Position numbers and translations under genes: made by a program | The notes under the pieces: model-generated | The model's input: the letters and a program-made list of their open reading frames with translations, nothing else | What the model was told of the DNA's origin: nothing | Databases searched by the model: none | Assembly: GCA_038207785.1 (NCBI GenBank) | Contig: JBBQZK010000001.1 | Span: 9,405-73,404 of the forward strand | Source of the DNA: Candidatus Limnocylindria bacterium | GTDB taxonomy: Bacteria > Chloroflexota > Limnocylindria > P2-11E | Direction: 5' to 3' | DNA: 64,000 bases | Shown: positions 1,845 to 39,327 of the stretch, piece after piece | Numbering within the stretch: position 1 is the first letter of the stretch | Layout: every line of letters begins with the position of its first letter

Positions 1845-2971
1845 CACGTGATCAACAGGGTCCCGTCGCGGATGATCGTCACGCCCTCCGCCTCCACCGT
1901 GGCGTCGGTGAACCACAGCTCGGCCGAGAAGCTCGAGGCGAACGTTCCCCCCGACTCGACGATGTCCCCGAGGTGGAACCGGAAGCCGCCGGCGCCGAAG
2001 CCCCAGTACACCGGCATGCGCGCGCCGTCGATCGTGAGCGGTAGGAGCGGATTGCTGCCGATGACGATCTCGCTGAGCCGATCCTTGTCGCCGGTCTGCG
2101 CATCCCAGGCCGCCCGGAGCTCGCCGGTCCGAGAGCCGGCGTTGGCCTCGACGAGGTGGCCGGCGCGGAAGATCAGCTCGAGGTCACCGGTGAACGCGTT
2201 GAGGTCCACACTGCGGCCGGCGACCCCCTGGCCCCGCCGATAGCGGATCGTCCCCTCGGCGCTGTCGGCGATCGGCAGCGTCCGGATCGCGCCGGCGGGC
2301 AGCTCCTCCTCCCGGTCGCGGGCGCATCGTGCGTTCCGCACCTTGTCCGGCGAGGCATCCCCGTCGTTGAGGTGATACCAGCCGTCGCGCTCGAGCGTCA
2401 CGCTGAGGTCGGTGCCGTCGGGTGTGCGGACGCGCAGCGTTTTGCCGCGGACGGCCGCGACGATCCGCTCCTGGCGCGCGCGCAGATCGGCGCGATCGAG
2501 GTCCAGGATCGCGTGCTGGTACGCCGCGTACAGCCGCAGGGTCACCTCGCTCCCGGACCCGCTCGCGAGGTCCGGGAACCAGTGGAAGTGCACGCCGCGG
2601 CCCGGCCAGCGGGCGAGGACCCATTCCGACTGCATCGTCGTCGTCGAGCCCCGGAGGGCGTAGTTGCCCGGTAGCCAGATGAAGACCTGCGCCGGGCGAA
2701 AGAGATCGAGCATCGCCTCGTTCTCGCGAAGGGCCGCGGCCGGGTCCGGATGCTTCCCCTCGCGGTCGCGTACCGCCGTCAGGCGCTCGGTCCAGTTGAC
2801 GGTGGTGGCGTGCTCGATGCCCCCCGCGCGCAGGACGGCGAGACGGACAGCCTCGAAGAGCTTCGGCAGCACGTACGGGTCGGCGAGGTAGATGACGCGC
2901 TCGCCCGGCTGCACGCGGAGGGTCCGGTTCACGATCTGGTCGGCCAGTGCGTCCCAGTCCGGGTCACTCAC
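1844..2971 (-). CDS. M29-family (aminopeptidase T/AmpS-like) metallopeptidase-like protein
   Basis: The N-terminal ...LRVQPGERVIYLADPYVLPKLFEAVRLAVLRAGG pattern is typical of the M29 fold. The GTG start overlaps the thioesterase stop (GTGA). Confidence 0.4.
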   Translation of the reverse strand: MSDPDWDALADQIVNRTLRVQPGERVIYLADPYVLPKLFEAVRLAVLRAGGIEHATTVNWTERLTAVRDREGKHPDPAAALRENEAMLDLFRPAQVFIWLPGNYALRGSTTTMQSEWVLARWPGRGVHFHWFPDLASGSGSEVTLRLYAAYQHAILDLDRADLRARQERIVAAVRGKTLRVRTPDGTDLSVTLERDGWYHLNDGDASPDKVRNARCARDREEELPAGAIRTLPIADSAEGTIRYRRGQGVAGRSVDLNAFTGDLELIFRAGHLVEANAGSRTGELRAAWDAQTGDKDRLSEIVIGSNPLLPLTIDGARMPVYWGFGAGGFRFHLGDIVESGGTFASSFSAELWFTDATVEAEGVTIIRDGTLLIT

Positions 2972-3390
2972 CGCGGCGGGTTCGGGTCGCGGGTGCTGTA
3001 AAGGACGCGACCGATCGCGATGAGCTCGCCCGTCGCGTTGCGCACCTCTGCGTCGGCGACGCCGATCGACCGCCCCAGCCGGACGACCCGTGCCGTCGCG
3101 GTCAATGCCTCACGGCCGGCGACCTTCAGGTAGTCCACCCGCAGGTCGATGGTCGGGACGCCGCGCCCGAGCTGGAGGGCGATCGCGTAGTCGCCGGCGA
3201 TATCGAGCAGCGACCCGATGACGCCCCCGTGGAGATACGGGACGGATGGGTCACTGACGAGCTCTTCCCGGAACGGCATCCGGATGAGCACGGCGCCGGC
3301 CGCGTCGGTGGAGAACTCGAGGCCGAGGAACGCGTGGAACGGGCTGGTCGCGAACTCGCGATCGAGCTCCGCGCGCGCGGCCGGCTCCAT
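2968..3390 (-). CDS. PaaI-family hotdog-fold acyl-CoA thioesterase
   Basis: It is 140 aa and has the PaaI-like ...PYLHGGVIGSLLDIAGDYAIAL... motif. Its ATG overlaps the stop of the acyl-CoA ligase gene. Confidence 0.7.
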   Translation of the reverse strand: MEPAARAELDREFATSPFHAFLGLEFSTDAAGAVLIRMPFREELVSDPSVPYLHGGVIGSLLDIAGDYAIALQLGRGVPTIDLRVDYLKVAGREALTATARVVRLGRSIGVADAEVRNATGELIAIGRVLYSTRDPNPPR

Positions 3391-4952
3391 CAGGCGACCT
3401 GCTCGGTCATCGACTCCTGTGCCTGCCGCTCGAGGGCCTTGCGATCGATCTTGCTCGTCCCGGACAGCGGGAACTCGTTCACGAAGAACACCCGTCGCGG
3501 GTGCGCGTACGCGGCGCCACGCTCGAGGTAGAAGGCCTTGATCTGCTCCTCGGTGACCTCGTGCCCTTCACGGCGCACGACGAACGCCACCGGCACGGCG
3601 CCCTTCAGTGCATGCGGGACCGGGACGACCGACGCCTCGAGCACCCCGGGGTGCTGGAGCACGATCGCCTCGACCTCCTTCGGGTAGACGTTTTCGCCGC
3701 CAACGCTGATCTGGTCGTCCTTGCGCCCGAGGAAGAAGTAGAACCCCTCGGCGTCACGGCGCATGAGGTCGCCGCTCTTCAGCCATCCATCCGGCGTGAA
3801 TCGGGCCGCGGTGACCTCGGGCAGGTTGTGGTAGCCGCGGGCATTCCCCGGATTGCGGATCCAGGTCTCGCCGATCTCGTCGACGCCGACATCGACACCA
3901 GCCTCGTCGACGAGCCGGACCTCCATCTCGGGCAGCAGGATCCCGCAGCTGCCGAGCTTCTTCTTCCCCCAGCGCGGGATGAGGATCGGGACCGGTCCGC
4001 TCTCCGTCATCCCGTAGCCCTCGACGACATCCACGCCGCCGAAGGCCTCCTGGAGCTGCTCGAGGAACTCGGCGGTCACGGGCGCCGAGCCGACGCCGAG
4101 GTAATTGACGCTCCGGACGTCGTGGGCCTTCAGGAACTCGTGGTCCCGCAGCATGAGCGCGAACATCGTGGGAACGCCGATCGTGTGCGTGCAGGCGTAG
4201 CGCTCGATGGCTTCGATCACCGCTCGCGGGTCGAACTTCGGCAGGATCACCGCGGACGCGCCGCCCAGGATGAACGGATAGAACGCGCCGCTCAGCGCGT
4301 TCGCGTGATACATCGGGCCGCTGATCAGCGTGCGCTCGTCCGGGCTGATGAGATGCGCCCGGCGGAGGATCTCGGCGTTGTGGATCTGACCGGCGTGGTG
4401 GAGCCGCACGCCCTTGGGCCGTCCGGTCGTCCCCGAGGTGTACGGCATCATGCATAGGTCCTCGAACTCGATCTCGACCGCGACGCGCTCCGCGGACGCG
4501 TCGGCGACCCAGCGGTCGTAGGAGACCCGGCCGGCGACCGACCTCACCGCGTCTTTGCCACAGAGGACGACCTGTCGGATCGTCGGGATGTCGGCGGCGA
4601 GCTGGACCGCGAGCTCGTGCCAGTCGGGTGAGGCGATGAGGATCCGAGACCCGCTGTCCGCCAGGACGTAACGCATCGCGTCGTTGCCCGACCGGACGTT
4701 CATCGGGACGGCGACCGCGCCGGCGCGCATGACACCGAAGAAGCACTCCACGAAATGGCGCTCGTTGCCCTGCATCAGGGCGACCCGCTCGCCCTTTTGG
4801 ATGCCACTCGCGAGCAGCGCGTTCGCGACCCTGTTCGCGCGAGCCTCGAGCTCGGCATAGGTGAGCTCGTCGCCGTCCTGGATGAGCGCGACCTTCGACG
4901 GCGAAACGCGATAGCCGATCTCCGGCAGGTACCCGAAGTTCTGGATGTACAC
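3390..4952 (-). CDS. AMP-dependent acyl-CoA synthetase/ligase
   Basis: It has the AMP-binding signature YTSGTTGRPKGV and the C-terminal ...SGDL...GRKDDQI...GENVYPKEVE. It uses a GTG start. Confidence 0.85.
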   Translation of the reverse strand: MYIQNFGYLPEIGYRVSPSKVALIQDGDELTYAELEARANRVANALLASGIQKGERVALMQGNERHFVECFFGVMRAGAVAVPMNVRSGNDAMRYVLADSGSRILIASPDWHELAVQLAADIPTIRQVVLCGKDAVRSVAGRVSYDRWVADASAERVAVEIEFEDLCMMPYTSGTTGRPKGVRLHHAGQIHNAEILRRAHLISPDERTLISGPMYHANALSGAFYPFILGGASAVILPKFDPRAVIEAIERYACTHTIGVPTMFALMLRDHEFLKAHDVRSVNYLGVGSAPVTAEFLEQLQEAFGGVDVVEGYGMTESGPVPILIPRWGKKKLGSCGILLPEMEVRLVDEAGVDVGVDEIGETWIRNPGNARGYHNLPEVTAARFTPDGWLKSGDLMRRDAEGFYFFLGRKDDQISVGGENVYPKEVEAIVLQHPGVLEASVVPVPHALKGAVPVAFVVRREGHEVTEEQIKAFYLERGAAYAHPRRVFFVNEFPLSGTSKIDRKALERQAQESMTEQVA

Positions 4953-4955
4953 CGC

Positions 4956-5987
4956 CTACGGGACCAGCAGGATCTTGCCGAACGCTTCGCGCCGCTCCAG
5001 CGCGTCCTCGGCGGCGCGGGCCTCCGCCAACGGCAGCACCCGGTCGATCACCGGCCGGATCCGGCCGCGTCGGACCAGATCGAGCAGAGCGACCAGGCCC
5101 TCGCGGGTCCAGCCATCCGACCCGATGATCGTTTCCTCACGCGTCCAGACGTATCGGAGGTCGGTGACCGCATCGAAGCCGCTGGTCGCGCCGCAGGTGA
5201 GAATGCGGCCACCCTTGCGGACGGAGCGGACGCTCGTCGGCCAGGTGTCTTTGCCTGAGTAGTCCACAACGACATCGACCCCGCGCTTGCCCGTCAGCTG
5301 CCAGAGCTGCTTGCCCCAGTCCGCTGCGCTCGTGTCGATGACGGCGTCGGCTCCGAGCTCCGTCAGGCGCTTCCTTTTATCCGCCGAGCTGCTGCCGGCA
5401 TAGATCGTCGCGCCCGCGAGCTTCGCGATCTGTACGCAGGCGGTCCCGACACCGCCGCTCGCGCCGTGGATGAAGACCGTCTCGCCCAGGCGGACCTGGC
5501 CACGATCCATCATCAGCCGCCAGGCGGTCCCGTAGCCGATCGGGAGGGCCGCGGCGTGCTCGAAGCTGACGTCGTCGGGGAGCGGGATCACGTTTGCGGC
5601 CGACACGACCGCAAATTCGGCCATGACGCCTTGGGCGTCCTCGCCGAGAGCGCCCTCGGGGATCGCCGGATCGATGAGGACTCGCTGACCGACGCGCACC
5701 GTCGTGACACCGGGCCCGACCGCCGCGATGACGCCGGCGCCGTCGCCACCGGAGATGTGCGGAAGCTCCGTCTTCTTGGCGGGCATCCCGCGCCGGACGA
5801 AGATGTCGAGGAAGTTCAGGGCGCAGGCCCTGATCTCCACGAGGACCTCGCCCGCGCCTGCCGCCGGCCGCGGCCAGCGCTCCTCGAGGCGCAGGACCTC
5901 GGATCCGCCGTGTTCGTGGAAGACGATCGCCCGCATCACCTGGCCCGCTGGCGCTTCCGCCTCGCCGACCGGGGCCGCCTGACCCAT
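4956..5987 (-). CDS. zinc-type alcohol dehydrogenase / quinone oxidoreductase (MDR superfamily)
   Basis: It has the MRAIVFHEHGG... GroES-like N-terminus and the Rossmann motif HGASGGVG. The ATG at 5987 has a GGAGG RBS 5 nt upstream. An alternative ATG at 5936 (MRAIVF) lacks an RBS. The 561-aa ORF-track entry is over-extended. Confidence 0.75.
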   Translation of the reverse strand: MGQAAPVGEAEAPAGQVMRAIVFHEHGGSEVLRLEERWPRPAAGAGEVLVEIRACALNFLDIFVRRGMPAKKTELPHISGGDGAGVIAAVGPGVTTVRVGQRVLIDPAIPEGALGEDAQGVMAEFAVVSAANVIPLPDDVSFEHAAALPIGYGTAWRLMMDRGQVRLGETVFIHGASGGVGTACVQIAKLAGATIYAGSSSADKRKRLTELGADAVIDTSAADWGKQLWQLTGKRGVDVVVDYSGKDTWPTSVRSVRKGGRILTCGATSGFDAVTDLRYVWTREETIIGSDGWTREGLVALLDLVRRGRIRPVIDRVLPLAEARAAEDALERREAFGKILLVP

Positions 5988-6012
5988 CCCTACCTCCGCA
6001 CTGCGTGCGCAT

Positions 6013-6034
6013 TGACATGTTACGAGGAATGTCA
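6013..6034. promoter_or_regulatory. everted inverted repeat TGACAT-N10-ATGTCA overlapping a perfect TTGACA -35-like hexamer on the minus strand, upstream of the dehydrogenase operon
   Basis: Read directly from the sequence. The half-site is the same as in the ATGTCACGTGACAT palindrome found elsewhere in the window. The 12-mer TGACATGTTACG recurs at 21183. Confidence 0.5.
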
Positions 6035-6060
6035 AAGGGCACGCGCTCCGCTCGCCGAAG

Positions 6061-6840
6061 TCAGACGGAGCGGACGGACCTCCGTCGGGGCTGCGGCGCA
6101 CGGACCGGAAGAGGCTCCGCCGCTCCATGCGTCGCCCGGACGCCGAGCAGGCTGCCGATGATCCGGGTCTGGCCGTCGCGCACGTGGCGCGCGGTCGCCT
6201 CTCGGGCACCCTGGCGGTCCCGCCGAGCGAGCGCCGAGACGATGTCGCCGTGATCGTTGGTCGGCAGCGCCTCCAGCAGCACCGGATCGACGTACGCGGT
6301 GATGGTCGGGTCGATGAGCAGGATCCGCCTGCTCTCATCGAGGAGGCCCTCGATGAGGTGGACCAGTCGCTCGTTGGCCGACAGGCGTGCGAGCGCCAGA
6401 TGGAACTCGGAGTTGGCCTCGATCGCGAAGCGACGGTATGCCGCGGGATCGGTGCTGAACTTCTTGGCCTCGGACTGCACCCGGCGCTGCAGGCGCTCGA
6501 ACCCGTCGACGTCGCGGTCCGTGACGTGGTCGACCGCGAGCTCGGCGGCCAGGGCCTCGAGGGCCAGACGAAGCTGGAAGATCTCCTGGACGTCACCGAC
6601 GCTGAGCTCGGTGACGACGTAGCCGACGCGGGGAATGACACTGACGAGGCCCTCGGTGCAGAGCAGCTTGAGCGCCTCGTGCACCGGCGTCCGGCTCATC
6701 TTGTACTTCTGGGAGACCTTTGTGCCGAGCACCATCTCCCCCGGCTTCAGCTTCGTGCTGAGGATGTCCTCTTTGAGCTGGCGATAGGCCTTCTGCGCGA
6801 GCGAGCGGGTGTTCTTGACGGATGAGCGGATCATCGGCAC
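6061..6840 (-). CDS. GntR-family transcriptional regulator (FadR-like, FCD C-terminal domain)
   Basis: It has the N-terminal winged HTH (…SQKYKMSRTPVHEALKLLCTEGLV…) and a helical FCD-like C-terminus. It sits 28 nt downstream of dppC in the same operon. Confidence 0.8.
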   Translation of the reverse strand: MPMIRSSVKNTRSLAQKAYRQLKEDILSTKLKPGEMVLGTKVSQKYKMSRTPVHEALKLLCTEGLVSVIPRVGYVVTELSVGDVQEIFQLRLALEALAAELAVDHVTDRDVDGFERLQRRVQSEAKKFSTDPAAYRRFAIEANSEFHLALARLSANERLVHLIEGLLDESRRILLIDPTITAYVDPVLLEALPTNDHGDIVSALARRDRQGAREATARHVRDGQTRIIGSLLGVRATHGAAEPLPVRAPQPRRRSVRSV

Positions 6841-6867
6841 TGCGCGGAGCCTAGCAAAGCACGGTCC

Positions 6868-7800
6868 TCACTCATTCGGGCCGCGACGTCGCGGATCGAG
6901 CACGTCCCGGAGACCGTCGCCGGCGAAATTGAATGCGAGCCCGGTGACGACGATGAGGACGCCGGGGATGGTGCTGACCCACCAGGCGACGTCGAGGATG
7001 ATGCGGCCGTCGGCCACCATGTTGCCCCACGTCGGCGTCGGGGGCTGCACCCCGAGGCCGAAGTAGCTGAGCGCCGACTCTTGCAGGATGACCGCGCCGA
7101 CGCGCAGCGTGGCCGACACGATGATCACCGGCGCGACGTTCGGAAGGATGTGCCGCACCATGATCCGCCCGCTGCGCGCGCCGACGGCGTGGGCGGCCTG
7201 CACGAATTCGGTGGTCCGGAGCGACAGAACGACGCTCCGAACGAGCCGCGCGGTCCCCGGCCAGGCCGACAGGCCAAGGAACACGATCAGCAGCTGCAGG
7301 CTCGAGCCGTAGATGCTGAGGACGGCGATGAGGAGGAAGAAGATCGGGATCGAAATGAAGACGTCCACGACGCGCATCAGGAAGTTGTCCGTCCGGCCGC
7401 CGACGTAGCCGGCGATCACGCCGATCGCGCTGCCGATGGTGACGCTGATCACCATCGCAACGAGACCGACGCTGAGCGACACCCGGGCTCCATAGATCGC
7501 GCGACTGAGCATGTCGCGTCCGAGCCCGTCGGTCCCGAGCCAATGAGCCGCCCCCGGCGCCTGCAGCCGGTCCCTCAGGATCTGCGCTTCGGGATCGGCC
7601 GGCGACACGAGAGGCGCGAGCAGACCGGCCACAGCGAACAGGAGCACGACCGATGCGCCCACCGCGACCCGGTGATTGGCGATCAGTCGCCGCCAGAGCT
7701 CGGGCCGCTTCCGCAGCACCGTGGCAGGAGCGGCGCCGGTCACGGACCGACCGACGACGGTCACGCTAGCTGTACTGGATCCGCGGATCCGCGGCGCCAT
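6868..7800 (-). CDS. peptide/nickel ABC transporter permease (DppC/OppC-like)
   Basis: It has the family-5 permease signature ...ESALSYFGLGVQPPTPTWGNMV.... An alternative GTG start at 7764 lies immediately after the dppB stop. Confidence 0.85.
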   Translation of the reverse strand: MAPRIRGSSTASVTVVGRSVTGAAPATVLRKRPELWRRLIANHRVAVGASVVLLFAVAGLLAPLVSPADPEAQILRDRLQAPGAAHWLGTDGLGRDMLSRAIYGARVSLSVGLVAMVISVTIGSAIGVIAGYVGGRTDNFLMRVVDVFISIPIFFLLIAVLSIYGSSLQLLIVFLGLSAWPGTARLVRSVVLSLRTTEFVQAAHAVGARSGRIMVRHILPNVAPVIIVSATLRVGAVILQESALSYFGLGVQPPTPTWGNMVADGRIILDVAWWVSTIPGVLIVVTGLAFNFAGDGLRDVLDPRRRGPNE

Positions 7801-8719
7801 AGAGCACGTCGGCGAGGAGGTTTCCGAGCACCGAGGCGATCGCGCTGAACAACGTGACCGTGATCACGACCGGATAGTCGCGGATGAACACCGAGTCGAC
7901 CGCGAGGCGGCCGACCCCTGGCAGCGAGAAGATGGATTCGACGATCGCCGCGCCGCTGATCAGGAACGGGAGCGTGAAGCCGAGCAGCGTGATCACCGGG
8001 AGGAGGGAGTTGCGCAGCGCGTGACGGACCACCACGGTCCGCCGCTGCAAGCCCTTCGCGTGGGCCGTCCGGACGTAATCCTGGCTGAGCGATTCGAGCA
8101 TCGACGACCGCACGTAGCGCGCGATCGTTCCCATGAGACCGGTGCTCAGGACGATAGTGGGCATCACCAGATACGGCGCCATCTCCATGGGATTCCATCC
8201 GGTCGCCAGTGGCGGTCGGATACCGCTCACCGGCAGCCAATGCAATCGGACCGCGAACAGCATGATGAGCATCAGGCCCAGCCAGAACGAGGGCACCGTG
8301 AAGCCGAACAGCGCGACGAGCGTGCCGAGGTAGTCGAGCGGCCCGTTGGGCCGGAGCGCCTGCAAGATGCCGATGGCGGCGCCCGCGAGCACGCCCACAA
8401 CGATCGCGAGCAGCCCGAGCGTCAGCGTTGTCGGCATGCGCTCGAGAACGAGATTGATCACCGGCTGGCGGGACCGGTACGAGTACAGCTCGCCCCGCGC
8501 GAGCGCGGTCATGGTCTTCACGTACTGCACCGGCAGCGGATCGTCGAGCCCGAGCTCCACCCGGAGCTCGCGGTATCGCTCGGGCGTGGCCTGCTCCGGA
8601 TCCACGAGCAGGCGCGCCGGATCGCCGGGGGCGAAGTGGATGATCGCGAACGACAAGATCGAGATCCCGATGATCAGCGGGATGAGCTGGATGAGACGGC
8701 GTGCGATGTACCGTCTCAT
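7766..8719 (-). CDS. peptide/nickel ABC transporter permease (DppB/OppB-like)
   Basis: It begins MRRYIARRLIQLIPLIIGISILSFAIIHFAPGDP, a typical DppB N-terminus. It has six TM segments and the EAA-like loop. Confidence 0.85.
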   Translation of the reverse strand: MRRYIARRLIQLIPLIIGISILSFAIIHFAPGDPARLLVDPEQATPERYRELRVELGLDDPLPVQYVKTMTALARGELYSYRSRQPVINLVLERMPTTLTLGLLAIVVGVLAGAAIGILQALRPNGPLDYLGTLVALFGFTVPSFWLGLMLIMLFAVRLHWLPVSGIRPPLATGWNPMEMAPYLVMPTIVLSTGLMGTIARYVRSSMLESLSQDYVRTAHAKGLQRRTVVVRHALRNSLLPVITLLGFTLPFLISGAAIVESIFSLPGVGRLAVDSVFIRDYPVVITVTLFSAIASVLGNLLADVLYGAADPRIQYS

Positions 8720-8773
8720 TCCAGCTCCCCCCTTACTGCGCGAACGCGGACGACCGGTGGCGTGGGTAGAACG

Positions 8774-10480
8774 CTAGACGGCCTCCCACTGTGCCGCGGT
8801 GGTCCAAAGCTGCGGGCTGACCTTGATCGGCGGGATCTTGACGGTGTTCCGAACGACGAGCAGGTCCTGGATCCGCCAGAGGTGGATGAATGGCACGTCC
8901 CCCTCGACGATGCTCTGGATCTCTCCGTAGATGCGTTTGATGTCCTTCTCCTCGGTCGCCTTCGTGCCCTGGACGAACAGGTCGTCGACCTTGGGGTTGG
9001 CGTACCCGACGGTGTCCGGGCTGGGAGGCGGGGTGTGGAGGAAGTTCGCCTGGAGGTCGATACGGGGATCGATCGTGAAGTTGCCCCAGCCTTGGAAGAA
9101 CCCTTCGTAGCCCCCGACCACGCCCTTGGAGATGATGGTGCCGAAGTCGAGCTGCTGGATCTGGAACGGGATGCCCATGGTCTTGAAATACGGCTGCAGC
9201 GCGGCCGCCCAAGGGGCAGTGCGCGGTGAGCACATGTAGGTCCACTCGAAGCGCTTGCCATTCTTCACCCGGACCCCGTCGGCGCCCATGGTCCACCCTG
9301 CCGCGTCGAGCAGCTGTTTGGCCTTGGCCGGGTCGTACTCATATTTGGGGGCCTGGGGGTTGTAGATGTAGGACAGCGGCGACACGAGCGAATAATTCGG
9401 TTCGGCCGTCCCGGCGAAGAGGGCGTCGGTGATCGCCTTCCGATCGGGGGTATGGGCCATCGCCTCACGGACATTGCGGTCGGAGAACAGGACATTGGTG
9501 GGGTCGAGCTGCATGTACCAAGCCGTGGTGCCCGGCGACCGCTGCGTCGTGTAGTTCGTCTTGTCCTTGTCGAACTCTCCGAACTGATCGGCGAGGACGG
9601 ACGCGACCTGCACGCTGCCCGCGCGGAGCTCGGCGATGCCCGTCGCCGCATCGGGGATGCCGCGGGAGATGATCGTGTCGAGCCGGGGACGCCCCGCGAA
9701 GTGGTCCTTGAACGCGGTGAGCACGACCCCCTCGCCGTTCTTCCAGTCGCTGACCATGAACGGTCCGGTCAGGATCGGCTTGCGCGCGAATGCCGACTTG
9801 GGATGGTCGGCGACGGGGATCGTCGAAAGGATGTGCTTGGGCACCATGATCGAGCTCGCGACGGTGACGAGGAAGATCGCCGACAGATTCTTCAGCTTGA
9901 AGACCACGGTGTCGTCCCCGCTGGTGGTGATCCCTGCGATCGTCGTCGCCTTCTTGTCCTTGAAGTCCTGCGCTCCGACGATGTTGGCGAGATTGGATGG
10001 CAGGCCGCCGGGCCGATCCGGATGGGACAGCGTCTCGTACGTGTACTTGATGTCCTCGAGCGTGAACGGATTGCCGTCGTGCCACTTGACGCCCTTACGG
10101 ACCTTGAACGTATAGGTCGTTCCGTCCGCGGACACCGTCCACGACTCGGCCAGGTCCGGCGTTGGGCTCATTTCCGGGAGCTGGACCCTGACCAGGCGAT
10201 TCGCCGTGGCGAAGAAGATGTTCCCCGCGTAAGCGTTCCCATTGCCGTAGGGCAAGAGCGTGTTCGGCTCCTGCCCCTGGTTGATGATGAGCGTGCCGCC
10301 GATCTTGGGCGCCTTCGTTCCGCCGGCCCCGGGCGCCGCGCTGCCGCTGGTGGTCGGTCCGGTCGTCGCCGGCTGGCAGGCGGCCAGCGCCGCGAGCGCC
10401 GCTGCGCTCAAGCCGGTCGCCGCGATGAGCTCTCTGCGCGTGAGGACCGTCTGCCCTGAAGGACCCTTCGCTCGCCTCAT
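8774..10480 (-). CDS. ABC transporter substrate-binding protein, family 5 (peptide/nickel), Tat/lipoprotein signal
   Basis: It has an RR motif and an ...AALAALAAC lipobox. It is 568 aa, and its start has a GGAGG RBS. Confidence 0.85.
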   Translation of the reverse strand: MRRAKGPSGQTVLTRRELIAATGLSAAALAALAACQPATTGPTTSGSAAPGAGGTKAPKIGGTLIINQGQEPNTLLPYGNGNAYAGNIFFATANRLVRVQLPEMSPTPDLAESWTVSADGTTYTFKVRKGVKWHDGNPFTLEDIKYTYETLSHPDRPGGLPSNLANIVGAQDFKDKKATTIAGITTSGDDTVVFKLKNLSAIFLVTVASSIMVPKHILSTIPVADHPKSAFARKPILTGPFMVSDWKNGEGVVLTAFKDHFAGRPRLDTIISRGIPDAATGIAELRAGSVQVASVLADQFGEFDKDKTNYTTQRSPGTTAWYMQLDPTNVLFSDRNVREAMAHTPDRKAITDALFAGTAEPNYSLVSPLSYIYNPQAPKYEYDPAKAKQLLDAAGWTMGADGVRVKNGKRFEWTYMCSPRTAPWAAALQPYFKTMGIPFQIQQLDFGTIISKGVVGGYEGFFQGWGNFTIDPRIDLQANFLHTPPPSPDTVGYANPKVDDLFVQGTKATEEKDIKRIYGEIQSIVEGDVPFIHLWRIQDLLVVRNTVKIPPIKVSPQLWTTAAQWEAV

Positions 10481-10525
10481 TCCACCGCCTCCTTCGCGTT
10501 CCTGACCGCTCGCCTCCCCATGTTT

Positions 10526-10539
10526 ATGTCACGTGACAT
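10526..10539. promoter_or_regulatory. operator palindrome ATGTCACGTGACAT upstream of the substrate-binding-protein-dppBC-GntR operon
   Basis: It is a perfect 14-bp palindrome lying about 45 nt upstream of the substrate-binding-protein ATG. It is part of the repeated promoter-operator cassette. Confidence 0.7.
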
Positions 10540-10557
10540 TCCAGACCGGGCCACCCG

Positions 10558-10586
10558 ATGATGCGTCGCCGCCGATGCGCGGTCAA
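10558..10586 (-). promoter_or_regulatory. putative promoter: TTGACC (-35) - 17 nt - CATCAT (-10-like), directly upstream of the operator
   Basis: The same -35/17-nt/-10 arrangement recurs at 12119-12147, 16280-16308 and 24872-24900. Confidence 0.45.
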
Positions 10587-10597
10587 TGACCGCCGGC

Positions 10598-12061
10598 CTA
10601 CGGATACGGATTGACCGAAAGGGTGTTGAAGTTGCGGAGGAACGCCGGGATCGGCGCATCCGTGAAGGCCGGGGCGACCGCGCTGGCGTCCGGCCCGCCG
10701 ATGAGCTTGCCGTATGGGTTGCTGAGCCCAGCGGCAGCGGTGTTGAGATCGGCGGCCTTCGTGCTCGGCCAGCTGCCGTGGTCGATCCGGCCCAGCAGCA
10801 CCTGGATCGCGGCGATCTGCTCGGCGGCGGTGAACTGGCAGTGACCCGAGCGGTGCACGAGCAGCTGTCGGAGCTGGCTCGAGGTGCCGGCGTCCAGGAA
10901 CGCCTGCGCGTAGCCCTGGTCCTGGTTCGGGTATCCATAGGGGTCGGCCTGGGTGTGCATCGTCATGACGACCGCGCGCCCGATGTTGCCGCTGAAGATC
11001 GGATCGAGGTCCTCGACCTTCGTCACCGTGCCGGGATCCGCGCCGATGCGCGGCGCGCGCGCGAGCGTGCGGAGATCGGCGGCGAGGTTGAGTCCCGCGG
11101 CGGCATACATCGCCCGAACGATGTCGGCCGATGCCGAGCGCGCGAGCTGCGCCCCGTAGTCGACGCCGGTGTTCCAGGAGAAGTTCCCTCCGGTCACCGA
11201 GCCGTCGACGCTGTTCCAGGTGCCGACGCGGATCTCATAGTCGGCCCGGCCGTCGTCGTGATACATCCCATTGAATCGGCTGTTGAGGTACTGGTTGTAC
11301 TGCCGTGTCGCGTAATCGGTCGCGGCCGGCTGGGTCGCTCGCGCGTCGTCGATCCAATCCGGCGTATCGACCATCGCCTCGGCCAGCGCGAGGCGGGCGC
11401 GGCCTGCGGCCGTCTGCTGCGCGGCGTCGACCGTGGCGATGTAGGCGTTGTAGTAGCGGGTCAGCTGTCCGCCGTACTTGCCGATGTTCACCAGCGGCTG
11501 ATCGAATCCGAGGAGCTGCTGCATCACGAAGGCGTGGTCGAGGCGCTCGTTCGCGCGTCCGATGCTGCCGGCGATGTAGGTGCATTCCGCGAGCCCGCCG
11601 GCGAATCGCCCGGGATAGAACTGGAGCAGGTGCGCGGTCACCGCCCCACCGGCGGAGAGACCCCAGGCGATCGTCCGCGCCGGGTGACCGACGAGCCGCT
11701 CGAACGTGTCGAGCACGAGGGCCTGAGATGGATACATCTGCTTCGGCTCGTAGCAGAAGTCGCTGCAGGCGTACGAGCCCCCGGCGATCGCGAAGCCCTG
11801 GCCCAGCAGCCATTGGCGCGTCCACTGGTCGGAGCTGACCTGCGCGAGATTCGGGTCGCCCTGGATCCCGTGGCTGTAGAGGAAGAGCGTGCCGTTGTAG
11901 CTCCCCGGGACCTCGATGCGGTAGGTCGCGCCGTCGCTCATCGTTCCGACGTACACCGTCGGAGTGCTCGTCGCCGATGCCGACGTCCCGGTCAGGCCGA
12001 TCGCGACGACGAGTGCCACGCCGACGAGCCAGGCCGGCCAGCTGCTGCGCCCTGTCATCAT
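10598..12061 (-). CDS. secreted alpha/beta-fold hydrolase (esterase/depolymerase-like), signal peptide
   Basis: It starts MMTGRSSWPAWLVGVALVVAIGLTGTSASA and has a GGAGG RBS. It has a G-x-S-x-G nucleophile elbow, GLSAGG. The ORF-track start at 12691 is an over-extension. Confidence 0.5.
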   Translation of the reverse strand: MMTGRSSWPAWLVGVALVVAIGLTGTSASATSTPTVYVGTMSDGATYRIEVPGSYNGTLFLYSHGIQGDPNLAQVSSDQWTRQWLLGQGFAIAGGSYACSDFCYEPKQMYPSQALVLDTFERLVGHPARTIAWGLSAGGAVTAHLLQFYPGRFAGGLAECTYIAGSIGRANERLDHAFVMQQLLGFDQPLVNIGKYGGQLTRYYNAYIATVDAAQQTAAGRARLALAEAMVDTPDWIDDARATQPAATDYATRQYNQYLNSRFNGMYHDDGRADYEIRVGTWNSVDGSVTGGNFSWNTGVDYGAQLARSASADIVRAMYAAAGLNLAADLRTLARAPRIGADPGTVTKVEDLDPIFSGNIGRAVVMTMHTQADPYGYPNQDQGYAQAFLDAGTSSQLRQLLVHRSGHCQFTAAEQIAAIQVLLGRIDHGSWPSTKAADLNTAAAGLSNPYGKLIGGPDASAVAPAFTDAPIPAFLRNFNTLSVNPYP

Positions 12062-12080
12062 CGGACCTCCCCACGCTCGG

Positions 12081-12094
12081 ATGTCACGTGACAT
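12081..12094. promoter_or_regulatory. operator palindrome ATGTCACGTGACAT upstream of the secreted hydrolase gene
   Basis: It is a perfect 14-bp palindrome 20 nt upstream of the ATG. A TTGACC-N17-CATCAT promoter lies at 12119-12147. Confidence 0.7.
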
Positions 12095-12143
12095 GCAACG
12101 TGCACCCGGCCTTGCGCGATGATGGGCTTCCTGGGCCCTCGGG

Positions 12144-13493
12144 TCAATGACCGGGCCCGGAGGCCGCGGGCGCATCCGATCGTGCCGCGGCGAACAGCGC
12201 CGCGCGATCGACCGGCGTCCCGCGCTTGAACACCATCGCGATGCCGGTGGTCGCGGCGATCGTCCGCGTCGGGTCGCCGACGACCAGAACGAGGTCCGCT
12301 CGCTTCCCCGGCGCAACGACGCCGATATCGCTCGCCCCGAGCGTCTCTGCAGGCACGCTCGTCGCCGCCCGGAGCGCGGCGGCGGGTGAAAGGCCGGACC
12401 GCACGAGAAGCTCGAGCTCGCGATGGAATGAACTGCCCGGCAGGATGTAGGCGAACGGCGCATCGGTCGCGGCATGCAGGCGCACGCCCGCTTCGAACAT
12501 CGCGCCGGTGAACCGCATGACCTTCTCGAGCGCCCGCGCCGCCTGCGAGTAATCGGCCGCCGACCAGCCCTCGACGAACCGGTCACGCGTCTCACGCCAC
12601 CCGGAGCGCGCGACCGCGGCGTACTCGGCCATCGCCGGGTCCGCGTCGAGCGCCTCGATGCCGCGCCGGCCCCGTTCCACCGTGCGATCAAGGGTGATGA
12701 GCGTGGGGTTCACGTAGATCCCCTGCTCGGCCAGCCGCGCCGCGATGCGCTTGGTCCGGTCGGCTCCGAGGTCGACGGCCGCCCAGCCGCGGACGAAGTT
12801 GGCCCAGAACGCGCCGAGCCCGCGGCGGCGGCGATCCTCCGCCGGCCAGATGAGCTCCTCGGGCACGACCTCGGTGTAGAGGGACTGGGCGGTGTGCTCG
12901 AGACCGGCGACGCCGCAGTCGATGGCCTCGCCGGCGCGCACCTGTCCGAGATGGGCGCTCGTGCTCAGGCCGTGCTCGCGGGCTCGCCGGACGAACGTCC
13001 GCATGGCGGCGGCAGGCAACATCATGTACGCCTTACACGCGTCGACCCGCTTCTCGTCCAGCAAGTCGGCCGCGCGCACGGCATCCTCGTCATTCGCGAG
13101 GGCAAGGGAATGATCGGGCCAGAACGGCTCGGCGCCGTCGATCAGCGGACCGCAGCAATAGATGCGCGGGCCGCCGTCGCCACCGGAGCGCTCCGCGGCT
13201 CGCCACGGCAGGATGCGTTCGAAGGAGTTCCCGACGTCCTTGACCGTGGTGATGCCATAGGCGAGCCACAGGGGGAGCGCCTGCGGCTGCACGTGCGTGT
13301 GCATGTCGATGAACCCTGGCAGCACGGTGTGGCCACGCCCCGCGATGGTCCGGGCGCCCGCCGGCACTGCCGTGCGTTCGCGCGGCCCGCAGGCGACGAT
13401 CAGCTCGCGCTCGAGCACGACAGTGGCGTCCTCGATCACCGGGGCGCCGGTCCCATCGAACAGCCGCGCGCCGACGATCGCGATGGGCGCCAC
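12144..13493 (-). CDS. amidohydrolase-superfamily metal-dependent hydrolase
   Basis: It has ...LPGFIDMHTHV... with HxH metal ligands and a C-terminal ...GTDAP.../...GKRADLVLV... region. The GTG start at 13493 follows the M20 stop; the ORF-track start would overlap 104 nt. Confidence 0.7.
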   Translation of the reverse strand: MAPIAIVGARLFDGTGAPVIEDATVVLERELIVACGPRERTAVPAGARTIAGRGHTVLPGFIDMHTHVQPQALPLWLAYGITTVKDVGNSFERILPWRAAERSGGDGGPRIYCCGPLIDGAEPFWPDHSLALANDEDAVRAADLLDEKRVDACKAYMMLPAAAMRTFVRRAREHGLSTSAHLGQVRAGEAIDCGVAGLEHTAQSLYTEVVPEELIWPAEDRRRRGLGAFWANFVRGWAAVDLGADRTKRIAARLAEQGIYVNPTLITLDRTVERGRRGIEALDADPAMAEYAAVARSGWRETRDRFVEGWSAADYSQAARALEKVMRFTGAMFEAGVRLHAATDAPFAYILPGSSFHRELELLVRSGLSPAAALRAATSVPAETLGASDIGVVAPGKRADLVLVVGDPTRTIAATTGIAMVFKRGTPVDRAALFAAARSDAPAASGPGH

Positions 13494-16235: not shown

Positions 16236-16253
16236 CGCTGCTCCAAGCCTTGG

Positions 16254-16267
16254 ATGTCACGTAACAT
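16254..16267. promoter_or_regulatory. operator ATGTCACGTAACAT in a divergent intergenic region; a TTGACC-N17-CATCAT cassette at 16280-16308 serves the minus-strand operon
   Basis: It lies 19 nt upstream of the minus-strand ATG at 16235 and 24 nt upstream of the plus-strand ATG at 16291. Confidence 0.7.
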
Positions 16268-16290
16268 GCAGGCGATCGGATGATGCGCGC

Positions 16291-21161: not shown

Positions 21162-21185
21162 CACAACTCCCCCGCCAAATATGAC

Positions 21186-21199
21186 ATGTTACGTTACAC
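21186..21199. promoter_or_regulatory. operator variant ATGTTACGTTACAC in a divergent intergenic region
   Basis: The TGTTACGTTACA core matches TGTnACGTnACA. It is flanked by TGACAT and GTGTCAC. Confidence 0.55.
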
Positions 21200-21204
21200 G
21201 TTAG

Positions 21205-24845: not shown

Positions 24846-24910
24846 TCGCGGTCCGGACCGTCACCAGCCAGTTGACCCGCACCGCCATCGAGCGCATGCT
24901 TGCCGCATAC

Positions 24911-24924
24911 ATGTCACGTGAAAT
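24911..24924. promoter_or_regulatory. operator ATGTCACGTGAAAT, with a TTGACC-N17-CATGCT promoter at 24872-24900, upstream of the DJ-1 pair
   Basis: It matches the cassette architecture, here on the plus strand. Confidence 0.6.
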
Positions 24925-24953
24925 GCTTATCGTCCGCTCGGTTGTCGCTTCGG

Positions 24954-28165: not shown

Positions 28166-28257
28166 CGGCACGAGCGTGACCGATGTGATCGCGACCGGAC
28201 CCTCGGGCCGCGCGGGAATGTCCAGGCCCTCGCGGAGGGCCGGCAGTCGAGCGGAGC

Positions 28258-28881
28258 TCACGCTCGGTCCGACCGCCAGGTCTCGCCGGCGTCCCGGATC
28301 GTCGCCGGTCCGCCGGCACGGACCCGGAGGTGGCCGAAGCGCTGGTTGATGCTCGAGCCGAGCGCCTCGATGTCGGCGCCGTACACGTGGATCGAGATGG
28401 CCGGACCTGCCCCGGCGTTGCTGACGCGGTGGATGTTCTCCTCGGGCGGGACGAGTGCCGAGCAGTCGCCGCGAGCCGCCCGCTCGTGTCCCGCCTCGAC
28501 GAGGTAGCGGTCCTCGCCGGACCGCATGAGGCGGTAGCGGATCTGGGACTCCTCCCCCTCGTACACGCCCACGACGCACCAGCAGATGTGGTCGTGGATG
28601 GGCGTGGCCTGGCCGGGATGCCACACGAGGGCGACGACGCTGAACGAGCGATCCGGGGAGACCGCGAGCACGTGTTGGGTGTAGCGGTCAGGGGTGCCGG
28701 CTCGCGCACCCTCGGGCAGCCACGAGCGATCCGCGAGGAGCGGCGGCAAGCGCCGCATCGCGAGATCGGCCATCTCCCGGGGACCTCTGCCGTCGGCCTG
28801 CGCCGCCGACAGCTGGGCCACGAACGATCGCAGCGCGGGCGCGAGCGTCGGCGCTGACGGACCGGACCTCACCGCTTGCAT
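28258..28881 (-). CDS. cupin-fold protein (cysteine dioxygenase type I-like)
   Basis: It has ...ALVWHPGQATPIHDHICWCVVGVYEGEE.... The ATG at 28881 lies inside the operator. The ORF-track GTG is at 28893. Confidence 0.55.
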   Translation of the reverse strand: MQAVRSGPSAPTLAPALRSFVAQLSAAQADGRGPREMADLAMRRLPPLLADRSWLPEGARAGTPDRYTQHVLAVSPDRSFSVVALVWHPGQATPIHDHICWCVVGVYEGEESQIRYRLMRSGEDRYLVEAGHERAARGDCSALVPPEENIHRVSNAGAGPAISIHVYGADIEALGSSINQRFGHLRVRAGGPATIRDAGETWRSDRA

Positions 28882-28893
28882 GTTACGTGACAC
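28880..28893. promoter_or_regulatory. operator variant ATGTTACGTGACAC spanning the stop of the amidohydrolase gene and the start of the cupin gene
   Basis: The amidohydrolase TAA is at 28885..28883 and the cupin ATG at 28881..28879. Confidence 0.5.
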
Positions 28894-30145
28894 GGCTGGT
28901 GCCGCCGCGCGGCCGCTCCTCGAGGGGAGCGGCTGAACGGATGCGGACCCCGGACTGCATCACGAACCGCACGCGCCCGCGGTCGCTGAAGAGCGCCGGC
29001 TCGGACAACGGGTCCCCGGCGACGCCGATGAGGTCCGCCTGCTTACCCGGTTCGAGCGTGCCGACCGTGTCCAGCCCGAGGCAGGCGGCCGCCGTCTTCG
29101 TGGCCGCCATGATGGCCTGCAACGGAGTCATGCCGGCTTCGACCATGAAGCTGATCTCCTCGGCGTTCGCGCCATGCGGGCCGATGCCGGTGTCCGTCCC
29201 CATCGCGATCCGCACGCCCATCCGGAGGGCCAGCTGGAATGCCTCACGATGCCGCCCGATCAGGGCGTCCGCCTTCTTGATCACGTAGCTCGGCATGGCC
29301 GCCGGATCCGCGTCGGCCCGCCGGCGGGTCCACGGCAGCGCCGAAAGCGTCGGCACGAGGAACGTTCCGCGCTCGACCATCATCAGGCAGGCTTCCTCGT
29401 CGAGGAAGGTCCCGTGCTCGATGGACTCGATCCCGGCAAGCACGGCGTTCTTGATCCCCTGCGCCGAGTGAGCGTGAGCCATCACGGTCTTCCCCGCGGC
29501 GTGCGCCTCGTAGACGACGACGGCGATCTCCTCCGGCGAGAATCCCGTGGCGGTCGGCTCGTCGCTCGGCGACATGACCCCACCCGAGGTCAGCACCTTG
29601 ATCTGATCGGCGCCCGCGCGGAGCAGCTCGCGGGTGCCACGCCGAACGGCGTCCACGCCGTCGACCACGGCCATCGGGCGCTCCGCGTCCACGGGAAGGC
29701 GCATGACCACGCCCATCGGCATGAGCTGATCGCCGTGCCCACCGGTCTGAGACAGCGCGCCGACCGAGAGGCGCATCCGCGGCCCCGGGAACAGGCCACG
29801 GTCCACCGCGAGCCTGACTCCACGGGGCGTCCCGCCGCCATCGCGCACGGTCGTGATGCCCGCCTCCAGCGTCGCGCGCGCGTTGAACAGAGCCTGGGCG
29901 GTCACGAGGCTCGACGGCGTGAGCAGCTTCTCCTGCGCGTTGAAGGTCGTGATCCCCAGGTGCACGTGGCTGTCGATGAGTCCGGGGAGGATCGTCAGCT
30001 CGGACGCGTCGATCACCTCCGCGTCTCGCGGGCGCTCGCTGCCGACGCGCTCGATGCGGCCGTCGGCGATGGTGATCCAGGCTGGGCGCACCGGATCGGC
30101 GCCGGTGCCGTCGATGACCCCGCCCGCGTGGATCGCCGTCCTCAC
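28883..30145 (-). CDS. amidohydrolase-superfamily protein
   Basis: It has ...ILPGLIDSHVHLG... and ...GTDTGIGPHG... and ...GKQADLIGV.... Confidence 0.75.
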   Translation of the reverse strand: MRTAIHAGGVIDGTGADPVRPAWITIADGRIERVGSERPRDAEVIDASELTILPGLIDSHVHLGITTFNAQEKLLTPSSLVTAQALFNARATLEAGITTVRDGGGTPRGVRLAVDRGLFPGPRMRLSVGALSQTGGHGDQLMPMGVVMRLPVDAERPMAVVDGVDAVRRGTRELLRAGADQIKVLTSGGVMSPSDEPTATGFSPEEIAVVVYEAHAAGKTVMAHAHSAQGIKNAVLAGIESIEHGTFLDEEACLMMVERGTFLVPTLSALPWTRRRADADPAAMPSYVIKKADALIGRHREAFQLALRMGVRIAMGTDTGIGPHGANAEEISFMVEAGMTPLQAIMAATKTAAACLGLDTVGTLEPGKQADLIGVAGDPLSEPALFSDRGRVRFVMQSGVRIRSAAPLEERPRGGTSRVT

Positions 30146-31944: not shown

Positions 31945-33134
31945 CAGCTGGCGCCGAGCTCCCGTCCGGCGGTCGCGAACGCCTCGAGCGCGCGGTCGAC
32001 GTGCGCGGACTCGTGGGCGGCCGAGAGCTGTACGCGGATCCGCGCCTCCCCGCGCGGCACGACCGGGAACGAGAATGCGATGACGTAGATCCCGAGCTCG
32101 AGGAGCCGGTCGGCCATCCTCGTCGCGAGGCCCGCGTCGCCAAGCATGACCGGCACGATCGGATGCTCGCCGGGAATGATCCGGAAGCCGCGCTGCGCCA
32201 TCCCCTCGCGGAACCGGACCGTGTTCGCCCAGAGCCGCTCTCGCTCCAGGCTGGATCGCTCGATGAGATCCAGCACCGCGATCGACGTCGCGGCGATCAC
32301 GGGTGCGAGGCTGTTCGAGAACAGGTAGGGCCGGGACCGCTGCCGCATGAGCTCGACGATCTCTTTGCGCCCGGAGATATAGCCGCCGGAGGCGCCACCC
32401 AGCGCCTTGCCGAGCGTGCCCGTGATGACGTCCACCCGGCCGACCACACCACCGGCCTCGTGGGATCCGCGGCCGCTCGCGCCCATGACGCCGACCCCGT
32501 GCGAGTCGTCGACCATGACGAGCGCGTTCGAGCGGTCCGCGAGATCGCAGATGCCGCGGAGATCCGCCACGACGCCGTCCATCGAGAACACCCCGTCGGT
32601 CGCGATGACCGTGAAGCGGGCTCCCGAAGCCGCGGCGAGCTGACGCTCGAGATCGTCCAGATCGTTGTTCGCGTACCGGTAGCGCGTCGCTTTGGACAGA
32701 CGCACGCCGTCGATGATGCTGGCATGGTTGAGGGCATCGCTGATGATCGCGTCACCCTCGCCCACGAGCGTCTCGAAGAGGCCCCCATTCGCGTCGAAGC
32801 ACGAGCCATAGAGGATGGTGTCCTCGGTGCCGAGGAAGCGCGTCAGGCGATCCTCGAGCTCGGTGTGGATCTCCTGCGTGCCGCAGATGAACCGGACCGA
32901 CGAGAGCCCATAGCCCCACCGATCGAGGGCCCGGTGGGCCGCGGCCACGACGTCCGGGTGATTGGAGAGCCCGAGGTAGTTGTTCGCGCAGAAATTGAGG
33001 ACCTCGCCGCCCGGGCGAGCGACGATGACGGCCCCCTGGGCCGAGGCGAGGACCCGTTCGCGCTTGAACAGCCCGGCATCACGGATGCCGTCGAGCTGCC
33101 CGCGGAGGTGGTCGGACAGCGCGGTCGTCCGCAT
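31944..33134 (-). CDS. kbl: 2-amino-3-ketobutyrate CoA ligase (glycine C-acetyltransferase)
   Basis: It is near-collinear with E. coli Kbl (…[15 protein letters not shown]… …SVRFICGTQ… …[12 protein letters not shown]…). The MRTT start at 33134 matches the E. coli N-terminus. An alternative ATG at 33146 lies inside the operator. Confidence 0.9.
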
Positions 33135-33158
33135 GCTACGTAACATGTTACGTCAGTG
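33133..33158. promoter_or_regulatory. two overlapping operator variants, ATGCTACGTAACAT at 33133-33146 and ATGTTACGTCAGTG at 33145-33158, between kbl and the asparaginase gene
   Basis: They overlap the kbl start codon(s) and end just before the asparaginase GTG at 33156. Confidence 0.55.

Positions 33159-34886: not shown

Positions 34887-34890
<4 letters not shown>
34246..34890 (-). CDS. leuD: 3-isopropylmalate dehydratase small subunit
   Basis: It has ...[19 protein letters not shown]... and is ATGA-coupled to leuC. Confidence 0.85.
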
Positions 34891-39314
<4,424 letters not shown>

Positions 39315-39327
39315 CTCTTCCTCCTGT

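Follow-up and report, generated by a model that had tools for sequence, protein, structure and literature searches.

The subject of this analysis is a short inverted repeat in a 64-kb stretch of Candidatus Limnocylindria DNA (the window; 70% G+C), located just past a gene for a GntR-family regulator and in front of an operon for a dehydrogenase, a ligase, and a thioesterase, all within a catabolic island that extends from 0.4 to 34 kb. The minus strand of this locus carries, in order, genes for a secreted hydrolase (10598-12061), a family-5 substrate-binding protein (SBP; 8774-10480), two permeases, and the GntR/FCD regulator, followed by the dehydrogenase operon. A first-pass annotation of the window had counted seven genes in this operon; we could verify six after the GntR gene, encoding a zinc-type dehydrogenase (ADH), an AMP-dependent ligase, a 4HBT thioesterase, an M29/NicX-like protein, a nitroreductase, and a glyoxalase_3 protein, and the operon gene order is also found in two related loci, L009 and L001. 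The repeat, which we call site C, sits in the 124-bp gap (interval 5936-6061) between the stop of the GntR gene and the minus-strand dehydrogenase ATG at 5936. From the comparisons described below, we consider it likely that site C serves as an operator to which the GntR/FCD repressor of the adjoining upstream gene binds.

The regulator, a protein of 259 amino acids, matched the GntR domain PF00392 at residues 14 to 76 (53.4 bits versus a cutoff of 27) and the FCD domain PF07729, the C-terminal all-helical effector domain, at residues 86 to 221 (75.3 bits versus a cutoff of 24.3), which places it in this family. No NCBIfam equivalog reached its cutoff for the GntR/FCD protein. Its nearest solved structures were those of TM0439 (3sxy/3fms), with Atu1419 (6z74) lower among the ten matches (E value of 4e-11).

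The plus strand from 6010 to 6036 reads cat-TGACAT-gttacgagga-ATGTCA-aa, and the TGACAT-N10-ATGTCA repeat that had been described just past the GntR gene is present at 6013-6034, with TGACAT at 6013-6018, its reverse complement at 6029-6034, and a 10-nucleotide (nt) spacer between them. The arms of the repeat are actually 7 nt long, TTGACAT (6012-6018) and ATGTCAA (6029-6035). The 12-mer TGACATGTTACG was said to be shared with a second site, and it does recur exactly, at 21182-21193, one base off from the 21183-21194 first given; there is also a palindromic copy with one mismatch at 33139-33152. When one mismatch was allowed, TGACATGTTACG had 4 matches in the window versus 0.05 expected. The hexamer TGACAT by itself was not enriched (14 occurrences versus 14.6 expected), and the half-site TGTYACG counted singly was only marginally so (18 versus 11.5 expected); single half-sites are therefore of no weight, and the arrangement alone counts. 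The significance of the repeat comes from this arrangement and from its conservation and not from the number of hexamers.

We overlaid the island palindromes on sites C, D, and E and derived a 22-mer, TRACATGTYA-CG-TRACATGTYA, that is reverse-complement symmetric and contains two CATG-centered 10-bp palindromes 12 bp apart, which is equivalent to four boxes (the frame TRACATGTYACGTRACATGTYA, which site C matches as given in Table 1). The island palindrome ATGTCACGTGACAT was found with up to three mismatches at 10526, 12081, 16254, 21186, 24911, 28880, and 33133, all of them intergenic positions. The window holds 8 such matches versus 1.5 expected, and the eighth, at 46960, is probably a chance match. 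Eight sites matched the 22-mer at 16 or more positions, all intergenic and all within 6 to 34 kb, where 0.25 would be expected per 64 kb. A matrix made from the five island palindromes alone placed site C at rank 8 in the window, directly below the seven other sites, and the best background position in the window scored 8.5 bits. Because this matrix ranks site C right after the other seven, site C belongs to the island operator family and in the same register.

Within this frame, boxes 1, 2, and 4 of site C fit the consensus, and the island palindromes (ATGTYA-CG-TRACAT) fit at the inner boxes 2 and 3 only. The proximal unit of site C is centered on CATG, and the distal unit reads AATG. The TGACAT-N10-ATGTCA repeat is thus the outer box pair of the 22-bp frame, and the 12-mer shared with position 21182 is boxes 1 and 2 plus the central CG. 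The earlier claim that the repeat has a half-site in common with the island palindrome was borne out by this shared frame. The different binding geometry proposed along with it was not, since site C and the island palindromes occupy the same four-box register and differ only in which boxes match the consensus, and two-unit sites are usual in this regulator clade. Operator D has boxes 1 and 2 and the CG in common with site C; the two sites are oriented alike and lie at comparable distances from a gene start. The operator E region contains a perfect 16-bp palindrome, ACGTAACATGTTACGT, at 33138-33153. The start codons of the divergent aminotransferase and asparaginase II genes are both within about 10 nt of ACGTAACATGTTACGT, which suggests that the leaders of these two genes are very short or absent.

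Table 1. Genes, site C elements, and operator and promoter sites of the island (positions in the window)
Feature	Coordinates	Strand	Match to 22-mer	Description or basis
GntR regulator, FadR subfamily	6061..6840	minus		winged helix-turn-helix plus FCD; presumed binder; Pfam
First operon gene, zinc-type dehydrogenase / quinone or enoyl reductase family	4956..5987	minus		Pfam ADH_N, ADH_zinc_N
AMP-dependent ligase	3390-4952	minus		
4HBT thioesterase	2968-3390	minus		
M29/NicX-like gene	1844-2971	minus		
Nitroreductase	1236-1916	minus		
Glyoxalase_3	433-1266	minus		
Shine-Dalgarno and upstream ATG of dehydrogenase gene	5985..5997	minus		GGAGG (5997-5993); in-frame ATG (5987-5985)
Site C, 22-bp candidate operator	6013..6034	not applicable	19/22	TGACATGTTA-CG-AGGAATGTCA; frame match, matrix score of 15.9 bits, conserved block
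Site C box 1	6013-6018			TGACAT
Site C box 2	6017-6022			ATGTTA
Site C center	6023-6024			CG
Site C box 3	6025-6030			AGGAAT (degenerate)
Site C box 4	6029-6034			ATGTCA
Conserved block, in gene orientation	6012-6035			window, L008, and L092, TTGACATTCCTCGTAACATGTCAA; L009, ATAACATTCTTCGTAACATGTCAA
TTGACA	6030..6035 (6035-6030)	minus		part of box 4; unsupported as -35
TAACAT, candidate -10 (TANNNT) within operator	6017..6022	minus		reads toward dehydrogenase; inferred
Operator A	10522..10543		16/22	ATGTCACGTGACAT at 10526-10539; before operon of SBP, two permeases, GntR
Operator A promoter (cassette 10558-10586)	10558-10586	minus		TTGACC (10586-10581) -17- CATCAT (10563-10558), operator downstream; palindrome and promoter kept in L008 and L009
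Operator B	12077..12098		17/22	before secreted hydrolase gene 10598-12061
Operator B promoter (cassette 12119-12147)	12119-12147	minus		TTGACC (12147-12142) -17- CATCAT (12124-12119), upstream of operator
Operator F	16250..16271		16/22	ATGTCACGTAACAT; between divergent amidohydrolase genes
Operator F promoter (cassette 16280-16308)	16280-16308	minus		TTGACC (16308-16303) -17- CATCAT (16285-16280), for minus-strand gene
Operator D	21182..21203		20/22	TGACATGTTA-CG-TTACACGTTA; 24 nt from minus-strand gene start at 21161
Operator G	24907..24928		17/22	before DJ-1/PfpI genes
Operator G promoter (cassette 24872-24900)	24872-24900	plus		TTGACC (24872-24877) -17- CATGCT (24895-24900), upstream of operator
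Operator H	28876..28897		17/22	before cupin (CDO_I-like) gene and amidohydrolase gene; L009 counterpart GTGTCACGTAGCAT
Operator E	33129..33150		18/22	between divergent aminotransferase and asparaginase II genes

We compared site C across four loci, the window, L008, L092, and L009, whose GntR proteins are 100, 85, 73, and 67% identical to that of the window. The three other loci have the gene order of the window, SBP-permease-permease-GntR-dehydrogenase. The 24-bp block at 6012-6035 is invariant at 21 of 24 positions over the four loci, compared to 3 of 37 positions in the flanks, which is the conservation expected of an operator. Upstream of the SBP gene, CATGTCACGTGACAT lies behind a conserved TTGACC-17-CATCAT in all three loci where this region is available. 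The nearest genome, L001, is a metagenome-assembled genome of Candidatus Limnocylindria (Chloroflexota) whose GntR protein is 97% identical, and it was uninformative for the footprint. At 471-480 of L001, ten N stand in place of the sequence from the 3' part of the GntR gene through the 5' part of the dehydrogenase gene, as an assembly gap or through masking.

The in-frame ATG at 5987, which has a Shine-Dalgarno sequence in front of it, is probably the true start of the dehydrogenase gene. In L008, GGGGG precedes the corresponding upstream ATG, which the gene call uses, and L092 has an in-frame ATG after GGGGA (13 nt upstream), its gene call starting at an ATG further upstream that lies inside the operator. 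The upstream start adds about 17 poorly conserved amino acids (aa), an extension that L008 and L092 share and L009 lacks. If the upstream ATG is taken as the start, the distance from the operator to the start is 22 to 28 nt in all four loci. In NCBIfam, the dehydrogenase itself resembled models of quinone oxidoreductase and crotonyl/acryloyl-CoA reductase only at scores below their cutoffs.

The motif is also found with more distant GntR homologues. In 27 of 97 fetched loci, an exact match to the core TRACATGTYA or to ATGTYA-NN-TRACAT was found no more than 400 bp from the GntR homologue gene, and elsewhere in these 97 loci there were 9 matches in 611 kb, 8 of them in close-orthologue loci (GntR identity of at least 62%). 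The spacing between CATG cores near the GntR homologue genes peaked at 12 bp (17 cases versus 1.2 expected, many of the loci being related). Loci with homologues of about 35% identity carry TGACATGTCA-AT-GGGCATGTCG, laid out like site C, and several of these loci also have AMP-ligase, ADH, and 4HBT genes. Four further loci with homologues of 41 to 44% identity have two-unit or 12-bp-spaced CATG sites adjoining the regulator gene, for example, TGGCATGTTA-GC-TAGCATGTTC and TAACATGCTA-CC-TACCATGTCA. The L096 locus, with a 52% identical homologue, has a palindrome-type site upstream of the GntR gene and TGACATGTCA just past the GntR stop, as in the layout of the window. The motif therefore recurs before co-localized genes, at eight island sites, and travels with regulator homologues, in the 27 of 97 loci and the four more.

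Six loci from soil metagenomes (L020, L030, L032, L039, L041, and L044) have GntR homologues of 33 to 39% identity beside AMP-ligase and zinc-dehydrogenase genes, and L039 has a 4HBT gene as well. Because homologues this distant also adjoin AMP-ligase and zinc-dehydrogenase genes, the association of regulator and pathway is much older than the island.

We found no regulator other than GntR between 0.4 and 34 kb of the window and none in the syntenic L009 locus (16 kb). The region at 34.2 to 36.3 kb was considered as a hiding place for another regulator and was rejected, since it is leuC/leuD. The first-pass annotation had proposed that the same regulator or a paralogue controls the operon. Based on the footprint, on the motif tracking GntR homologues, and on GntR being the sole regulator of the island, the adjacent GntR/FCD protein, our presumed binder, very probably binds site C and controls the acyl-CoA-type operon downstream. 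The island has no paralogous regulator.

From the observed sequence, conservation, register, and co-occurrence with the regulator family, we infer how the site may work. A regulator free of its small-molecule effector would occupy the 22-bp site, probably as a pair of neighboring dimers, and this occupancy would keep the dehydrogenase/AMP-ligase/thioesterase operon off. It could do so by covering an internal -10-only promoter (TAACAT at 6022-6017, about 20 to 30 nt before the Shine-Dalgarno sequence and ATG) or by stopping transcripts that read through from the transporter-GntR operon upstream. The regulator would then be released when effector binds the FCD domain.

The promoters of the island are consistent with a repressor. 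Four cassettes have the form (ca)TTGACC, exactly 17 nt, and CATCAT or CATGCT, followed by a ATGTCACGTRACAT-type operator 9 to 25 nt downstream of the -10 (Table 1), and the location of the operator downstream of the -10 at these four promoters is a repressor-like placement. In L008 and L009 the SBP gene is preceded by the same cassette, as is the amidohydrolase gene in L009, and the promoter-operator cassette looks like a propagated module. We know of no experimentally described promoters or regulons in Candidatus Limnocylindria, and these cassettes give a first glimpse of a promoter consensus in the lineage.

At site C, the putative promoter, and with it the transcription start, would be set by the TAACAT within the operator. 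This hexamer is kept in all four orthologues, 22 to 29 nt from a start codon with a Shine-Dalgarno sequence. All six TAACAT hexamers of the window are in operator boxes and are directed toward a nearby gene start, in every case one without a TTGACC promoter. Two sites in the L010 locus follow the same rule of TAACAT toward the gene, and the TAACAT half faces the gene in 4 of 4 independent cases (P of about 0.06 under random orientation). Because TAACAT in the operators points at gene starts and the operator-to-ATG distance is kept at 22 to 28 nt, these results suggest an embedded -10-only promoter at site C.

It is possible, although we think it doubtful, that there is no internal promoter and that the operon is read only through from the TTGACC-17-CATCAT promoter at 10586, via the SBP, permease, and GntR genes, with site C acting as an intra-operon roadblock, by which the catabolic genes are uncoupled from expression of the transporter and regulator. 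The genes from 10480 down to 433 are all on one strand, and a promoter scan of 5500-7200 returned no sigma-70-like promoter and one weak terminator-like site, inside the GntR gene. There is also no conserved terminator; the GntR-proximal hairpin was considered for this role and rejected (z score of -1.4, sequence not conserved). Moreover, the intergenic gap in L009 is only 43 bp, and the conserved block there overlaps the GntR stop codon. However, the conserved distance from the operator to the Shine-Dalgarno sequence and ATG and the TAACAT hexamers that always face the gene (at sites C and D and at the two L010 sites) give a layout that looks promoter proximal, and the upstream promoter already has an operator of its own, which would make a second block partly redundant. 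The account in the first-pass annotation, a conventional sigma-70 promoter in which TTGACA serves the operon as its -35 while the everted repeat is bound in another geometry by the regulator or a paralogue, is improbable. That account had a perfect TTGACA on the operon strand at 6035-6030, with another on the plus strand, and, compared with ATGTCA-CG-TGACAT, the outer boxes are indeed an everted pair. Two site classes also occur at orthologous positions in L008, L009, and L096, one with inner boxes, ahead of the transporter or GntR genes, and one with a complete outer unit, downstream of GntR. Yet TTGACA occurs five times in the window, where it had been called the only consensus copy seen, and of these the plus-strand copy, at 6012-6017, is directed at the 3' end of the GntR gene, away from the minus-strand operon. 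For the minus-strand copy, none of the four orthologues has a TANNNT 16 to 18 bp downstream (the hexamers 17 bp downstream are ATGCGC in the window, ACGGAC in L008, ACAACG in L092, and ATGAAG in L009), and L009 has ATAACA where the others have TTGACA, a change that fits the degenerate R position of a protein box. A sigma-70 promoter with this -35 was therefore rejected on both the -10 spacing and the conservation of the -35, in agreement with the empty scan. The other promoters of the island use TTGACC, the site scores in the palindrome register, and the island lacks a paralogous regulator.

Binding by a different transcription factor, such as a PadR-like protein, seems very improbable to us. 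The padC operator of Bacillus subtilis, AACATGTAAATAGTTACATGAT, does have CATG cores with flanks that resemble ATGTWA/TWACAT (PMC5728393), but its CATG cores are 14 bp apart and those of site C follow a 12-bp spacing, neither the island nor the syntenic L009 locus has a PadR gene or another regulator gene, and the motif follows GntR homologues through gene neighborhoods that are otherwise unrelated. The repeat could also act in RNA, as a UUGACAU/AUGUCAA stem with a 10-nt loop that serves as a terminator, processing site, or stability element, which we regard as the most improbable of these explanations. The extended form at 6005-6042 folds at -10.8 kcal/mol (z score of -3.1, in the window), and the arms reach 9 bp in L092. 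The four-orthologue consensus fold, however, is only -3.7 kcal/mol, compensatory changes were seen in 0 of 7 stem pairs, and 2 of the 7 pairs are broken in L009, where the left-arm G-to-A change fits the R position of a protein box. The hairpin has no U-tract, its loop is as well conserved as its stem, which is unusual for a hairpin, and the same 10-mer is found in DNA contexts that allow no hairpin. Neither the region nor the whole window gave a meaningful match in Rfam; none approached the gathering score of a family, and of two subthreshold, chance-level matches in 5700-6300, neither was over the operator.

Several points weigh against site C being an operator of the GntR/FCD repressor with an embedded promoter. 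We looked for a consistent -35 upstream of the TAACAT boxes and found none. The core of the distant homologues, TGACATGTCA, has TGACAT at the corresponding position and not TANNNT, so a -10 inside the operator is not general. The 22-mer consensus was derived from the very sites that it scores, a circularity that the five-palindrome matrix removes in part only, and many of the 27 motif-positive loci are mutually related and not independent, so that these counts overstate their independence. The closest genome, L001, has its run of N exactly at the operator. The motif is off the canonical FadR-subfamily spacing GTM-N0-1-KAC, and the sequence cannot decide which box pair one dimer contacts. Finally, the lineage is uncultured, and site C is a predicted operator.

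The rest of the island, from 0.4 to 34 kb, contains amidohydrolase, M20, phosphotriesterase-family, creatininase, DJ-1, aminotransferase, and asparaginase II genes and is bounded by leuCD. Past it lies a core biosynthetic cluster (34246-41285) of leuD, leuC, leuA, ilvC, and the acetolactate synthase large subunit gene, and a PucR-type regulator gene is found beyond the island at 41525-42217. The transporter operon at 6868-10480 consists of the family-5 SBP and two permease genes, with the GntR gene directly after, and there is no adjacent gene for an ATP-binding subunit in the window, in L008 (263-3863), or in L009 (6364-9975). The minus-strand genes at 1844-2971 and 20124-21161 encode paralogous proteins with only faint M29/NicX-like similarity; one is in the operon behind site C, and the other comes first behind site D. 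An 805-aa open reading frame listed at 26207-28624 (minus strand) is overlapped by a separate cupin (CDO_I-like) gene at 28258-28893. These are two separate genes in L009, and the 805-aa frame is probably an overextended amidohydrolase.

One FCD-type GntR protein and eight operators would make up a testable regulon in an uncultured freshwater and soil lineage of Chloroflexota. The set of genes switched together appears to include a peptide-type ATP-binding cassette transporter, about 12 amidohydrolase/phosphotriesterase/creatininase genes, and the acyl-CoA ligase/reductase/thioesterase operon. A defined 22-bp target and a defined protein offer a practical route to the substrate of the island. 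More speculatively, and as a scheme we hold to be possible rather than probable, this FCD-GntR clade may use a modular 22-bp operator of two CATG-centered 10-bp palindromes with a 12-bp period, in which the choice of boxes and of A or G at the R position is functional; TAACAT boxes (sites C, D, E, F, and H) would double as a -10 that lacks a -35, and operators with inner boxes only would sit downstream of separate TTGACC-17-CATCAT promoters. If true, this would be a compact promoter-operator code that coordinates an amidohydrolase-rich catabolic island of about 34 kb in Candidatus Limnocylindria (Chloroflexota). The current understanding of bacterial repression is unchallenged by these results, which describe ordinary but cleanly documented gene regulation, and the tandem 10-bp units with a 12-bp period, off the canonical FadR spacing, are a modest addition to GntR operator architecture.

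Literature searches for TGACATGTCA returned primers and unrelated matches only, and searches for GntR with ACATGT returned no matching operator and no paper describing the motif. PxpR of C. glutamicum binds the unrelated agattgttcaacaatct. NanR of E. coli binds tandem TGGTATAW repeats, direct repeats of a hexamer unrelated to the island boxes. Like the regulator described here, NanR belongs to the FadR subfamily and has an operator with more than two boxes rather than one palindrome, but the boxes here alternate in orientation, whereas those of NanR are direct repeats. NanR is listed as an exception to the FadR-subfamily operator, whose consensus palindrome is NyGTM-N0-1-KACNy, with GT and AC 2 to 3 bp apart (PMC4494728). 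The island sites do not have this form, since the island palindrome is T-GT-CACGTG-AC-A, with a 6-bp gap, and the 10-bp core reads AC-AT-GT, the opposite order. Canonical FadR operators of the TGGTNNNACCA type nevertheless combine a symmetric operator with a winged-helix GntR dimer acting as a repressor at or after the promoter, as proposed here, and differ in spacing. GntR palindromes often have extra, weaker boxes 7 to 12 nt from the center, to one side of it or to both, and such extra half-sites were reported in a statistical description of 13 FadR-subfamily orthologous groups (Suvorova, Korostelev, and Gelfand, 2015, PMC4494728). Site C, when read as a central palindrome with boxes beside it, shows this arrangement, with its center at 6023/6024 and TGACAT and ATGTCA centered about 8 nt to either side. 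Unlike the published extra boxes, however, its flanking boxes fit the consensus better than one of the central boxes does.

The PadR-padC operator of B. subtilis is similar in its paired CATG cores, although it belongs to another protein family, with a 14-bp spacing and no PadR gene here (PMC5728393). A closer parallel is Atu1419 of Agrobacterium fabrum, a VanR-type FCD GntR protein that represses genes of hydroxycinnamate degradation (PDB 6z74; PMC7797058). Atu1419, the one regulator among the structural matches that has a published DNA complex, binds as a dimer to the 10-bp palindrome ATGTATACAT made of ATGT/ACAT elements. Each regulated region has several palindromes, of which some overlap -10 boxes, with a contribution from a degenerate second site; the sites are 109 to 190 bp apart and are joined by looping through a tetramer (PMC7797058). 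In contrast, the units here are in tandem at 12 bp and read TRACA|TGTYA, with ACA before TGT, everted relative to ATGT-AT-ACAT. Although the sequence similarity is distant, the two regulators are alike in being FCD-domain GntR proteins, one known and the other predicted to target short 10-bp palindromes of ATGT/ACAT elements.

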